Source of the DNA: Promethearchaeia archaeon
GTDB lineage: Archaea; Asgardarchaeota; Lokiarchaeia; Sigyniarchaeales; SOKP01
Direction of reading: 5' to 3'
Length of the DNA: 64,000 nt
NCBI GenBank assembly: GCA_029856155.1
Contig: JAHQWL010000023.1
Location: forward strand, 96,001 to 160,000
A model generated the notes under the pieces. The model made no database searches. It was not told where the DNA came from and saw only the letters and a list, made by a program, of their open reading frames with translations. Shown here piece by piece: positions 51,935-55,867 of this stretch (positions are counted from its first letter, which is position 1; every line of letters begins with the position of its first letter). Both the position numbers and the translations under genes were made by a program.

Positions 51935-53290
51935 TTATTTTAATAACTTCTTCTCTTTAGCATCTAATTCTAGCCAATCACTTACGTTCTTTAATTGTTT
52001 TCTTGAAGCTCCACATAGTATTTTTAAAAACGGAAGGAAATTTTGAATGAAATCAATTTGGGAAATTTCATATTTTCTTTTAAGCTTTTCTACAAATTCT
52101 TTTTCAATATTCGTCAAAGAATAATAAGTTCCTGAAGTGTATCTTGGAAATACAACTCTCTGAAATCCTTTTGATAAAGGTGTATCTTTTCTAGATAAAG
52201 CAACACCACCCGCAAAGAGGTCAAAAAAATAGGGTAATAGACCCCAATATTGAGTAGTACGAATTCTACCAAAAATTTCATCAGCTAATGAAAGGTTCTC
52301 AAAAGCGGTAGCAAGGTCTCTATTTGATTTCATGAATGTAAGGAGATTTTCATTGATCCATTTATATAAGAAGTTATAATCAACATCAGATTTGTTAGTT
52401 AAATTTTTAGCTTCTCGCAAAGAAGATACTTTAAATAAATCTCTAATTAAGGAAAATATTTCTTCTAGACTATCGCGATGTAGACTAAGGATTAATTCCT
52501 TTACATCGCCCTCAATCTTACCTTGACCAATTCCTTGAAGATCGTTGATAACTCCTCTCAAATCACCATTATTTTTTTCAATAATTAACTCTAAATCATC
52601 ATTTTTAAAACTTGTAATATTCTCCTTCTTTAGGATGTTTATTACTATTTTCATTACTTCATTCTTGGGTAAAGGAAGAACCTCATACCTTTTAATCTTA
52701 TTATATAATGGTTGTAGATTTGTTTTATATTCATTAGAACACATTATGATGGGGAACTGCGTATCCTGAATTAAATCAATAACAGTAGGAATTGCCCCTC
52801 TATCTTGAACTCCATAAATACCATCAATCTCATCAATAAGTATTAATTTCTCCTTTGACTCAGTAATAAAATCCATTATTCCACGAGATTTAGTAGTTTC
52901 TTTCAATCTCCTTTCTAATGTACTCCTCGTTCGTGTATCAGATGCGTTAGTTTCAATTACTTCCATATTGAAATCATTTGCTAGTGCATAAACAATAGAG
53001 GTTTTGCCAATTCCAGGTGGACCCTCTAATAAAACAGCAGCTTCATCAGGAGATATTTTTTTCTCTTCTTTTTGCTCCTTTTCAATAACACTTCTATTAA
53101 ATTCTCGAATTTCTTTATTCTCAGTATTAACTCGTTTTCGTTCTTCGAAGAAGTTTTTTACAAAATTCTCTAATTCTTCACTCAAGTTAACTCTTTGTCT
53201 GCCCAGTCTAGCAGTGGGTAAAGCCATTTCCTTGATGCTCTTTGGGCGAAATTTCTCAACCCAGGGAATATCTGAATACTTTTTTGGCAT
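51935..53290 (-). CDS. rfcL: Replication factor C large subunit
   Basis: PWVEKFRP, GPPGIGKT, IETNASD, LILIDEID, GDLRGVINDLQ, WINEN and LSLADEIFGR. Confidence 0.92.
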   Translation of the reverse strand: MPKKYSDIPWVEKFRPKSIKEMALPTARLGRQRVNLSEELENFVKNFFEERKRVNTENKEIREFNRSVIEKEQKEEKKISPDEAAVLLEGPPGIGKTSIVYALANDFNMEVIETNASDTRTRSTLERRLKETTKSRGIMDFITESKEKLILIDEIDGIYGVQDRGAIPTVIDLIQDTQFPIIMCSNEYKTNLQPLYNKIKRYEVLPLPKNEVMKIVINILKKENITSFKNDDLELIIEKNNGDLRGVINDLQGIGQGKIEGDVKELILSLHRDSLEEIFSLIRDLFKVSSLREAKNLTNKSDVDYNFLYKWINENLLTFMKSNRDLATAFENLSLADEIFGRIRTTQYWGLLPYFFDLFAGGVALSRKDTPLSKGFQRVVFPRYTSGTYYSLTNIEKEFVEKLKRKYEISQIDFIQNFLPFLKILCGASRKQLKNVSDWLELDAKEKKLLK

Positions 53291-53303
53291 TTGCTTTACT
53301 CAC

Positions 53304-54350
53304 CTACATATATTCTGAAAACAAACAGATTTTTGATAGAAGAGCAGATATTTGAATATCTATATCTCTCCCATCAAGGGTTCTGAAGTCAGAATCGGCA
53401 ATTAAATTAATTAATTTAATCCTTGTAAATTTACTTATCGGTAATTTATTAATTTCATTAAGTAAAAGTTTATAAAATTCATGAGCACTAAATTTATAAT
53501 TCGAAAGGATTTTTCGTGATAATTCCCTCGCTTTTGGGAAATCTCCTTTAAAGGTTACTAATAAGAGACTTCTAATAAGTTCATTATGAAATTTCTGAGC
53601 GTTTTCATATAAAATTTCAATAGATATATTGTTTCCATTAATACTGCTCAATTGTAAAAGATCAATTGCTTGAGAGATTCTACCCTCTGAAATTCGATAT
53701 AAAATTTTTATACATTCATCTGAAATTTCTAATGACTCTTGTTTAGTGATATAAAGAATCAGTTCTTTAAATTCAATAAATTTAACTCGAGAAATCAGAA
53801 TAATATGACATCTACTAACAATGGGATTAATAATACTTGAAATTTTGGTAGTGATTAAAATCATCCTACAATTAGTGCCATAGATCTCCATTAACCTTCT
53901 AAAACCTTGTTGGTTTGACTCTAAGGCTTCGAAATTCTTCACAACCAGAATTTTAAAAGGAGCTTTTCCCAATACTTTTAATTGAACAAAAGGTTTTACT
54001 TTTGCTTGAATAAATGCAGGTGTTGTAATTCTTTTTCCAGCACTGCTACCAATTTTATTTGTAGAAACGTAAGCCTCAGATCTTGCTTGTTTTCTTTCTT
54101 CATCAGTTAAAGGAACATCTGCATATACTAATTTAAAATTGGCGTCATAATCTTTATCTAGAAATTCCTTTGAAAATAATTGAGCAATCATCGTTTTTCC
54201 AATACCCTTTGACCCGACAAATAATAAATGTGGAAAATTACTTTGCTGAATTATATTTTTTAAAGCCTCTTTAACTCTTTTTCTTCCGCAGATTTCATCC
54301 AAACTTTTTGGATGATACTTTATTCGCCAAATAGGAATTTCTTCAGTCAA
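53304..54350 (-). CDS. Replication factor C small-subunit paralog with a degenerate ATPase site
   Basis: WRIKYHP, PHLLFVGSKGIGKT, QQGFRRLME and IVSRC are present. Walker B reads ILVVKNFE. Confidence 0.88.
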   Translation of the reverse strand: MTEEIPIWRIKYHPKSLDEICGRKRVKEALKNIIQQSNFPHLLFVGSKGIGKTMIAQLFSKEFLDKDYDANFKLVYADVPLTDEERKQARSEAYVSTNKIGSSAGKRITTPAFIQAKVKPFVQLKVLGKAPFKILVVKNFEALESNQQGFRRLMEIYGTNCRMILITTKISSIINPIVSRCHIILISRVKFIEFKELILYITKQESLEISDECIKILYRISEGRISQAIDLLQLSSINGNNISIEILYENAQKFHNELIRSLLLVTFKGDFPKARELSRKILSNYKFSAHEFYKLLLNEINKLPISKFTRIKLINLIADSDFRTLDGRDIDIQISALLSKICLFSEYM

Positions 54351-54391
54351 ATTTGAATACCTTAAGATCTGTATATTTTTTCAATAAATCG

Positions 54392-55360
54392 TTAAATTTG
54401 AATATATTCTATGATATTTGCTAAAAGTGCTGAAATCTGTATATATTCATCTGCCCCTTGACTTATTCGATAATCTATTTCTCCAATATATGTCCTTAAA
54501 TTAATTATTTTACTGGGATCTAGGTCTAAAATTGGTAACATTTCTGATAATTGCCTTATGAAATTTCGACTGTCAAGAATTTCAACAGCATCTATTATTT
54601 CTTTTGAACTTATAAAATCCTTTCTTTTGATAGCCGAGATTAAATTTTTTAAAGTTAATTTATCTAAAAATCCAGAAATTCTTAATATTTCATTAATATC
54701 TAAATTTTCCAAAAGTTCAAGAGCCACTGCCATCTGGAGAGTATTTATAGCTTTTCTTAAATCCCCTCCTGAAATAAAGTAAATTTGATTGAAAAATTGC
54801 TCTGACTTATTCGAGGGTATTTTCAAGTTCTCTTTTTCAGTTATATATTTTAATCTATCTATTATCTTTTTTTTTGGTAAACTTGTAAATCTAAACACTG
54901 CACATCGAGACACAATTGGATCGATTATTCTGTTTATATAATTGCATAAAAGTATGAATTTTATATTATCTGATGTTTTTTCAATAATTCTTCTAAGAGC
55001 TTGCTGGACTTGTCCGGGTATATTATCAGCCTCATCTAGGAGAACAAATTTTAAAGACCCATTTTTAGTAAAAGATTGATTAACAAAATTTTTTAAAATA
55101 TCTCTTACAAAATCTATTCTCACGGTGTCGGAAGCATTCAATTCCAAAAGATTGGTATCTAACTCTTCTTCTTTCAGAAAATGCCTTGCTATAATCAAGG
55201 CAGTACTTGTTTTTCCGGTTCCTGCTGGACCAGTAAAAATGAGATGAGGTATATTAGTATTTTTTACGAATTCTCTTAGATTATTTATCGCAATATTCTG
55301 GCTTACGATATCATCGAAATTTTTAGGTCTGTATTTTTCAGTCCAAGGAATTTCCAACAT
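54392..55360 (-). CDS. rfcS: Replication factor C small subunit (canonical)
   Basis: PWTEKYRP, GPAGTGKT, LELNASD, LLDEAD, QQALRR, VSRC and GGDLRKAIN. Confidence 0.95.
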   Translation of the reverse strand: MLEIPWTEKYRPKNFDDIVSQNIAINNLREFVKNTNIPHLIFTGPAGTGKTSTALIIARHFLKEEELDTNLLELNASDTVRIDFVRDILKNFVNQSFTKNGSLKFVLLDEADNIPGQVQQALRRIIEKTSDNIKFILLCNYINRIIDPIVSRCAVFRFTSLPKKKIIDRLKYITEKENLKIPSNKSEQFFNQIYFISGGDLRKAINTLQMAVALELLENLDINEILRISGFLDKLTLKNLISAIKRKDFISSKEIIDAVEILDSRNFIRQLSEMLPILDLDPSKIINLRTYIGEIDYRISQGADEYIQISALLANIIEYIQI

Positions 55361-55390: not shown

Positions 55391-55867
55391 CTAAACTTTA
55401 GAGTTCTTTTCTGTTAGATCTAACTCTAATACTTCATAAACTTTTTTGAAATTCATTTGTTCATAAAGCTTAGAAGCTTCTAGTGCTCTTTTTTTAATAT
55501 TCACTTTAATTTTTTCCACCTTAATCTTCTTCAAATGTTCTAAAGCTTTTTCTAATAAAAGACTCCCTACTCCTTTTTTACGATATGGTTCCTTTAGAAA
55601 AAACTGCTTAATATATCCTTCAGAAGAGCCAAATGGATCTATTCTAAGCTCAGCGATAATCATTCCTATAACTTCATTAGAATCTTCATCTACAGCTATA
55701 AGCATACCATGACGTTGAAGAGGATCGAAAATACGACGTCGTATTCCCCAATCAAAACGTTTAGGATCAAATTTTTGCCCCAGTCCTTCCACTAATTCTT
55801 TAGTTAAATCTTTTAAGTCTTCTATGTGTTCAGGATTTGCGACTTCAACTTTTATATTCGAACTCAT
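55391..55867 (-). CDS. GNAT-family acetyltransferase
   Basis: YRKKGVGSLLL acetyl-CoA loop and KLYEQMNF. Confidence 0.88.
   Translation of the reverse strand: MSSNIKVEVANPEHIEDLKDLTKELVEGLGQKFDPKRFDWGIRRRIFDPLQRHGMLIAVDEDSNEVIGMIIAELRIDPFGSSEGYIKQFFLKEPYRKKGVGSLLLEKALEHLKKIKVEKIKVNIKKRALEASKLYEQMNFKKVYEVLELDLTEKNSKV

Follow-up and report, generated by a model that had tools for sequence, protein, structure and literature searches.

A Lokiarchaeal rfcS3-rfcS2-rfcL operon with an ATPase-dead small subunit that probably contributes to a heteromeric clamp loader

Three adjacent genes for subunits of replication factor C (RFC), the loader of the PCNA clamp, lie on the minus strand at positions 51935-55360 of the window, by which we mean the whole 64,000-nucleotide stretch of Promethearchaeia archaeon DNA analysed here (positions 96,001 to 160,000 of contig JAHQWL010000023.1). 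An initial annotation, made from the letters of the window, had described them as a three-gene clamp loader composed of a small subunit (rfcS), a catalytically dead second small subunit, together with a large one (rfcL). The listing of open reading frames (ORFs) bears out the adjacency of the genes and the gaps of 41 and 13 nucleotides between them, and profiles from Pfam and NCBIfam place all three proteins in the RFC family. Because the gene order agrees with that of a clamp loader published from Lokiarchaeales (PMC12680538, Nat Ecol Evol 2025;9:2333), we equate the three genes with the RfcS3, RfcS2 and RfcL of that work:

54392..55360, minus strand: rfcS3 (the rfcS of the initial annotation), 322 residues, ATG start; a divergent, catalytically complete RFC small subunit
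53304..54350, minus strand: rfcS2, 348 residues, TTG start; an ATPase-dead small subunit that keeps Walker A and the arginine finger
51935..53290, minus strand: rfcL, 451 residues, ATG start; the large subunit

The middle protein, RfcS2, scores below the cut-offs of both small-subunit models in NCBIfam, with 220.4 bits against a cut-off of 303 for the archaeal RFC small subunit (NF001679) and 175.3 bits against 317 for the euryarchaeal RFC small subunit 2 (NF009067). Its motifs, as read from the translation, are the following:

54192..54215, minus strand: Walker A GSKGIGKT (residues 46-53), intact
54030..54113, minus strand: insertion PLTDEERKQ...AGKR (residues 80-107), after the strand equivalent to ELNASD
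53928..53951, minus strand: degenerate Walker B ILVVKNFE (residues 134-141), which replaces hhhhDEAD
53808..53816, minus strand: SRC arginine finger (residues 179-181)
53667..53684, minus strand: sensor-2 equivalent GRISQA (residues 223-228), with serine in place of arginine

Alignment and translation reveal that KYRP has become KYHP, ELNASD has become KLVYAD, DEAD has become KNFE and GDLRKA has become GRISQA, while both the QQxxRR helix and SRC are retained. The changes at KYRP, ELNASD, DEAD and GDLRKA and the retention of SRC and QQxxRR had been recognized in the initial annotation, and alignment confirms them. The insertion that it reported is also present in this protein, although its size is a net 28 residues rather than the approximately 25 given there.

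The same pattern extends throughout the RfcS2 family of 45 sequences. SRC is invariant (45/45), and the first acidic position of Walker B (138) is occupied by lysine in 41 members and asparagine in four, but never by aspartate. Position 139 is asparagine in 36, aspartate in eight and glutamate in one; the sensor-2 arginine position (226) holds serine in 42, threonine in two and alanine in one; and the arginine of KYRP is replaced by histidine in 20 and leucine in another 20, with other residues in the remaining five. In Walker A, a motif of RfcS2 that the initial annotation passed over, G46, G51 and K52 are present in 45/45 sequences and T53 in 42/45. To call the protein ‘arginine-finger-only’ therefore overstates the loss, given an intact GxxGxGKT in 42-45 of the 45 members. 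Because Walker A is conserved, RfcS2 probably binds nucleotide in a structural capacity without hydrolysing it. An apparent truncation of RfcS2 in one genome (G089) was rejected, its cause being masked N bases.

A model of RfcS2 from AlphaFold2 (AF2) has a mean predicted local distance difference test (pLDDT) score of 84.5 and a complete three-domain RFC small-subunit fold, with Z scores of 23-26 against RFC chains in fold comparison. The insert is modelled as a helix (residues 83-92) that leads into a disordered, low-confidence loop (residues 94-107, pLDDT <50). When the insert alone was searched against the PDB, no significant match extended beyond its flanks.

The two neighbouring proteins carry the following motifs, again taken from the translations:

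55208-55231, minus strand: RfcS3 Walker A GPAGTGKT
within 55022-55042, minus strand: RfcS3 Walker B DEAD
54902-54910, minus strand: RfcS3 SRC
54752-54766, minus strand: RfcS3 sensor 2 GDLRK
53000-53023, minus strand: RfcL Walker A GPPGIGKT
within 52820-52840, minus strand: RfcL Walker B DEID
52691-52702, minus strand: RfcL NKIK, at the SRC position
52553-52567, minus strand: RfcL sensor 2 GDLRG

RfcS3 just passes the cut-off of NF001679 (307.8 bits against 303) and keeps all catalytic motifs, as it does across the loci of the family. RfcL passes that of NF003229 (296.2 bits against 280), and the earlier statement that it has an ATP site but no SRC is correct, with GPPGIGKT, DEID and GDLRG in place and NKIK where SRC would stand.

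A search of the whole assembly (4.1 Mb, 104 contigs, 97% complete, 5.7% contamination) uncovers a fourth RFC gene on another contig, together with the only PCNA gene of the genome:

G000:C72:50415-51368: canonical rfcS1, 323 residues, 430.7 bits, every motif intact
G000:C72:35175-35543: PCNA gene, about 15 kb from rfcS1

At 430.7 bits this RfcS1 is well above the NF001679 cut-off of 303, and its best match in the PDB reaches 336 bits, versus 225 bits for the RfcS3 of the window. Contamination as the source of rfcS1 was considered and rejected, since orthologues occur in genomes of the same genus and family, and the protein groups with them in the tree. The genome has a single rfcL, and each of the 25/25 sampled genomes of the same family yields three small-subunit hits. 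The RFC parts list of this genome is three small subunits and one large subunit, and the gene first named rfcS is the divergent paralogue. Thus the L:S1(x3):S2 pentamer put forward in the initial annotation rests on an incomplete parts list, owing to the fourth gene on C72, and is not supported as stated because the canonical small subunit is encoded there and the window's copy is RfcS3. The description of a ‘three-gene’ loader likewise gives way to one of four genes, whose counterparts from a related species yield proteins that co-purify (PMC12680538).

Full-length orthologues of RfcS2 come from 44 loci (62-88% identity), nearly all with titles that name Promethearchaeota (= Lokiarchaeota), and RfcS2 orthologues are present in all 25 genomes sampled from the family. 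The order GNAT-rfcS3-rfcS2-rfcL, in which GNAT denotes an acetyltransferase gene, recurs in essentially all of the ~44 Promethearchaeota loci, with GNAT upstream of rfcS3 in 42/45 loci. The full arrangement is also present in L064, a locus from the same family at 51% identity, and S3-S2-L occurs in L062, from the sister family within the order. In other Asgard families the canonical rfcS1 adjoins rfcL, and therefore the Lokiarchaeal operon has displaced rfcS1. Pairwise ratios of nonsynonymous to synonymous substitution (dN/dS), determined by the Nei-Gojobori method against the eight closest relatives, are 0.08-0.14 for RfcS2, 0.11-0.16 for RfcS3 and 0.07-0.12 for RfcL. RfcS2 is under purifying selection, and the relaxed selection that the initial annotation had named as evidence against its own proposal is not observed.

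A wide protein search returned 542 relatives of RfcS2, of which the 120 listed match over their full length and share 71% identity or more with the query. Their names include ‘AAA family ATPase’, ‘hypothetical’, ‘RFC small subunit’ and, from JGI, ‘DNA polymerase III delta prime’, and only close Asgard RfcS2 proteins occur among these 120. A search of protein clusters gave only archaeal and giant-virus clusters among those listed. Some records carry unexpected labels. The Lokiarchaeal GNAT-S3-S2-L cluster is present in L037 (DATKTW010000121.1), titled ‘Candidatus Nanopelagicaceae bacterium’, and RfcS2 proteins with 77-84% identity occur in several metagenome-assembled genomes labelled Hermod-, Thor-, Hod- or Odinarchaeota (P0007, P0013, P0042 and others). 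Both observations suggest mis-binning or mislabelling in public records.

In an Asgard-only tree (48 rows, LG+C20, RfcL as outgroup), Lokiarchaeal RfcS2 forms a clade at 100/100 that is sister, at 99/91, to a second insert-bearing RfcS paralogue from Thorarchaeota and one other family. RfcS3 makes up a clade of its own (100/100), apart from canonical RfcS1; this long-stemmed clade stands next to the RfcS2/Thor-type group at 92/94, a placement that is prone to long-branch effects. The Thor-type clade comprises:

L060:5971-7101, and in L066-L076: second RfcS paralogue of Thorarchaeota, about 377 residues
L063:4959-6098: member from the other family, partly degenerate (GPRGSLKT, LRDAD, GDLKLA)

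The Thorarchaeotal protein has a +50-residue insert at the same site as that of RfcS2, its Walker A, DEAD, SR[C/S] and sensor 2 are intact in 9/9 sequences, and its gene is not adjacent to rfcL. Read most simply, these sequences would indicate an insert that originated while the ATPase was still active, with catalytic death a later event in the Lokiarchaeal line.

The RfcS2 family profile scores highest against archaeal RFCS (277 bits), lower against the eukaryotic subunits B-D (160-190 bits) and lowest against E (102-119 bits). The E chains are the only ones whose alignment with RfcS2 runs unbroken through the insert. Fold comparison yields Z scores of 26.5 with archaeal RFCS, 25.9 with yeast chain B and 23.5 with chain E. 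The lowest root-mean-square deviation to the RfcS2 model (9.4 Å) is that of chain E, but Foldseek and VIA-align do not discriminate E from B-D. RfcE is thus the closest relative of RfcS2 neither in sequence, where it ranks lowest by profile, nor in fold, where its Z score is below those of chain B and archaeal RFCS. Compared with the E-plug, the RfcS2 insert occupies a comparable site, but it is modelled as a helix (83-92) and a loop, the latter with pLDDT <50. Support from this analysis for a link between RfcS2 and RfcE is mixed.

A clamp loader of this composition has been described. Lokiarchaeales encode RfcL, the canonical RfcS1 and two further paralogues, with rfcS3-rfcS2-rfcL in an operon and rfcS1 elsewhere (PMC12680538). 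In that report RfcL lacks an arginine finger, whereas RfcS2 has Walker A and an arginine finger without Walker B, is termed ‘akin to the eukaryotic RfcE’, and contains a mid-gene insertion that fills the DNA chamber in the way the E-plug does. The four proteins of Ca. Harpocratesius repetitus co-purify through tandem His (RfcL) and then Strep (RfcS1) tags; AlphaFold3 models with 1:2:1:1 and 1:1:2:1 stoichiometry place RfcS2 opposite RfcL across the cleft, in position E; and trees and topology tests group RfcS2 with RfcE (PMC12680538). The gene in the window has the features given there for Asgard RfcS2, namely Walker A, SRC, no Walker B (KNFE) and an insert of +28 residues, and the operon likewise corresponds, with S3-S2-L together and rfcS1 on another contig in loci from Promethearchaeota. 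Hence the operon and its RfcE-like dead subunit are already known (PMC12680538). The initial annotation had cautioned that RFCs of this kind might have been reported before, and rightly so.

The yeast RFC-PCNA structure 1SXJ established that every ATP site of a clamp loader is made complete by an SRC arginine from the subunit that follows. The subunit at position E therefore donates a finger and receives none, and the subunit at position A receives one and donates none. Judged from the translations, the motif pattern at the locus fits this logic exactly, with RfcS2 keeping the trans-acting elements and the collar while losing the cis-acting residues, and RfcL showing the reverse. We consider it probable, with good confidence, that the rfcS3-rfcS2-rfcL operon of Lokiarchaea (Promethearchaeales) and the rfcS1 gene on the other contig encode a heteromeric PCNA clamp loader with RfcS2 at position E.

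For this loader we infer the following subunit positions, stoichiometry, nucleotide binding and role of the insert. RfcL would take position A, where it has an ATP site and would donate no arginine finger. RfcS1 and RfcS3, in three copies altogether, would fill positions B to D with complete ATPase sites and SRC fingers. RfcS2, at position E, would close the spiral and complete the ATP site of subunit D with its SRC arginine. Its own site, which has lost the acidic residues of Walker B and the arginine of sensor 2, would face the gap and receive no finger from a neighbour. Any nucleotide held by the retained Walker A would probably be structural and not hydrolysed, as in Rfc5/RFC3, and the 28-residue insert probably projects into the DNA chamber in the manner of an E-plug. 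The division of labour between positions E and A that the initial annotation had proposed agrees with the motifs, which are conserved in 45 family members, and with the published co-purification and AlphaFold3 models (PMC12680538).

Several observations weigh against such an assembly. The published co-purification relied on heterologous co-expression of another species' proteins and does not settle the stoichiometry, and its analysis by liquid chromatography-mass spectrometry was made once (PMC12680538). By raw sequence score RfcS2 is nearest to archaeal RFCS (277 bits) and furthest from E subunits (102-119 bits), fold scores fail to tell E chains from B-D chains, and AF2 predicts a helix and a disordered loop for the insert rather than a β-hairpin. 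In addition, the complex is known here from its genes and a single-chain model.

Different assemblies might be built from the same parts. The operon could make the loader by itself, from RfcL, three RfcS3 and one RfcS2, with RfcS1 remaining outside the complex in vivo, as the initial annotation proposed. The tight linkage and constant synteny of the three genes, the unlinked position of rfcS1 and the presence of every catalytic motif in RfcS3 all favour this arrangement, but we judge it unlikely: RfcS1 is retained in 25/25 sampled family genomes, only a single RfcL is available for it to pair with, and a tandem pull-down through RfcL-His and RfcS1-Strep recovered all four proteins (PMC12680538). 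Slightly less likely again is a pair of alternative loaders built on the single RfcL, one of archaeal type (RfcL and four RfcS1) and one of eukaryote type (RfcL, RfcS3 and RfcS2), whose tasks would differ, such that one might load and the other unload, or one serve replication and the other repair. Each of the two sets of small subunits is conserved under selection, and the adjacency of rfcS1 to rfcL in other Asgard families suggests an ancestral RfcL-RfcS1 pairing; however, PCNA and RfcL are each encoded by a single gene, and RfcS2 and RfcS3 were among the proteins recovered with tagged RfcS1, indicating mixed complexes (PMC12680538). We give equally little credence to an elaboration in which two assemblies on one RfcL prefigure the division of labour between RFC and RFC-like complexes, with GNAT as a functional partner of the operon. 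Finally, RfcS2 might be a decaying duplicate with no clamp-loading role, in keeping with its lost hydrolysis residues and its scores under both NCBIfam cut-offs. This very improbable explanation is effectively refuted by the selection and conservation data. The dN/dS of RfcS2 (~0.1) is the same as that of its active neighbours, 45 sequences that diverge to 51% identity show little or no variation in SRC, Walker A and the QQxxRR helix, and the relatives listed from the wide search (120 of the 542 found) are full-length matches.

A more serious alternative concerns descent. The likeness of RfcS2 to RfcE might be convergent, such that a terminal subunit degenerated independently, as in Methanosarcina RFCS2 and delta-prime, and RfcS2 would then not be ancestral to RfcE. 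We regard convergence as plausible, although not as the favoured explanation. The profile scores, highest for archaeal RFCS and lowest for E subunits, are in line with it, and both lineages are long branches, the RfcS2 stem measuring 1.12 substitutions per site. The intact ATPase of the Thorarchaeial sister paralogue implies that the loss occurred late, within Asgard, and a second, partial degeneration is seen in L063. Conversely, published trees and topology tests put RfcS2 with RfcE (PMC12680538), and it is only with E chains that RfcS2 aligns in one stretch across the insert.

Several features of the locus bear on its expression and surroundings. The start column of rfcS2 is a start codon in every one of 44 orthologues (TTG in 34, ATG in eight and GTG in two). 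A Shine-Dalgarno-like AGGTGA is located 10-15 nucleotides upstream of rfcL, in the gap 53291-53303, and AAGGT precedes the TTG start of rfcS2 in the gap 54351-54391; these motifs are consistent with polycistronic translation. One further gene adjoins the trio:

55391..55867, minus strand: GNAT acetyltransferase gene (PF00583), 30 nucleotides upstream of rfcS3

This conserved neighbour may share a transcript with the clamp-loader genes or be their operon partner. At one related locus (L015:1190-3992, JAHPZE010000020), an 86-residue ORF between GNAT and an intact rfcS3 duplicates the first ~66 residues of RfcS3 and is followed by two inserted genes, which encode a 206-residue membrane protein and a 293-residue protein resembling helix-turn-helix proteins. 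The tails of both ORFs have LFLKYLK.LKNKEKIT in common, and the arrangement looks like an insertion with partial target duplication.

How a clamp loader with four identical small subunits gave way to the eukaryotic one, in which all four differ, is part of the question of how the eukaryotic replisome originated, and the locus is a living example of this transition. Phylogeny, co-purification and AlphaFold3 models that make the case have already been published (PMC12680538), and because of this the window contributes only another genome, conservation and selection figures at population scale, and a long-branch caution on the link between RfcS2 and RfcE. Specifically, the small additions to the published account are the selection data, the loss of sensor 2, the motif frequencies in 45 orthologues and the Thorarchaeial sister paralogue.

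Among known clamp-loader subunits, yeast Rfc5 and human RFC3, which occupy position E, resemble RfcS2 in having a non-hydrolysing ATP site, a retained SRC, a C-terminal collar domain and, following the NASD strand, an insertion at a similar site. Unlike these proteins, RfcS2 keeps a consensus Walker A, its insert is predicted to form a helix and loop rather than the E-plug hairpin, and its similarity is lowest to E chains (102-119 bits, versus 160-190 for B-D). The RFCS2 of Methanosarcina and haloarchaea (NF009067) is, like RfcS2, a second small subunit that evolves fast and forms the end of the small-subunit chain, in a loader composed of three RFCS1, one RFCS2 and one RFCL (PMC2880001). The two align in one full-length stretch (residues 6-341 versus positions 3-336 of 340 in the model), but at 175 bits RfcS2 falls far under the cut-off of 317 and is not that equivalog, and the euryarchaeal system has two small-subunit types whereas the Lokiarchaeal system has three. 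Bacterial delta-prime (HolB), the name that JGI auto-annotation gives to some RfcS2 orthologues, is likewise an inactive AAA+ stator at the terminal position that has retained its SRC finger; however, its homology is only distant (E ~1e-12 to HolB models), and RfcS2 keeps Walker A. Compared with the published Lokiarchaeales loader (PMC12680538), the genes of the window have the same order, the same RfcS2 motifs, an RfcL without a finger and the same Promethearchaeota lineage; nothing substantive differs, and the window represents another genome of the same order.

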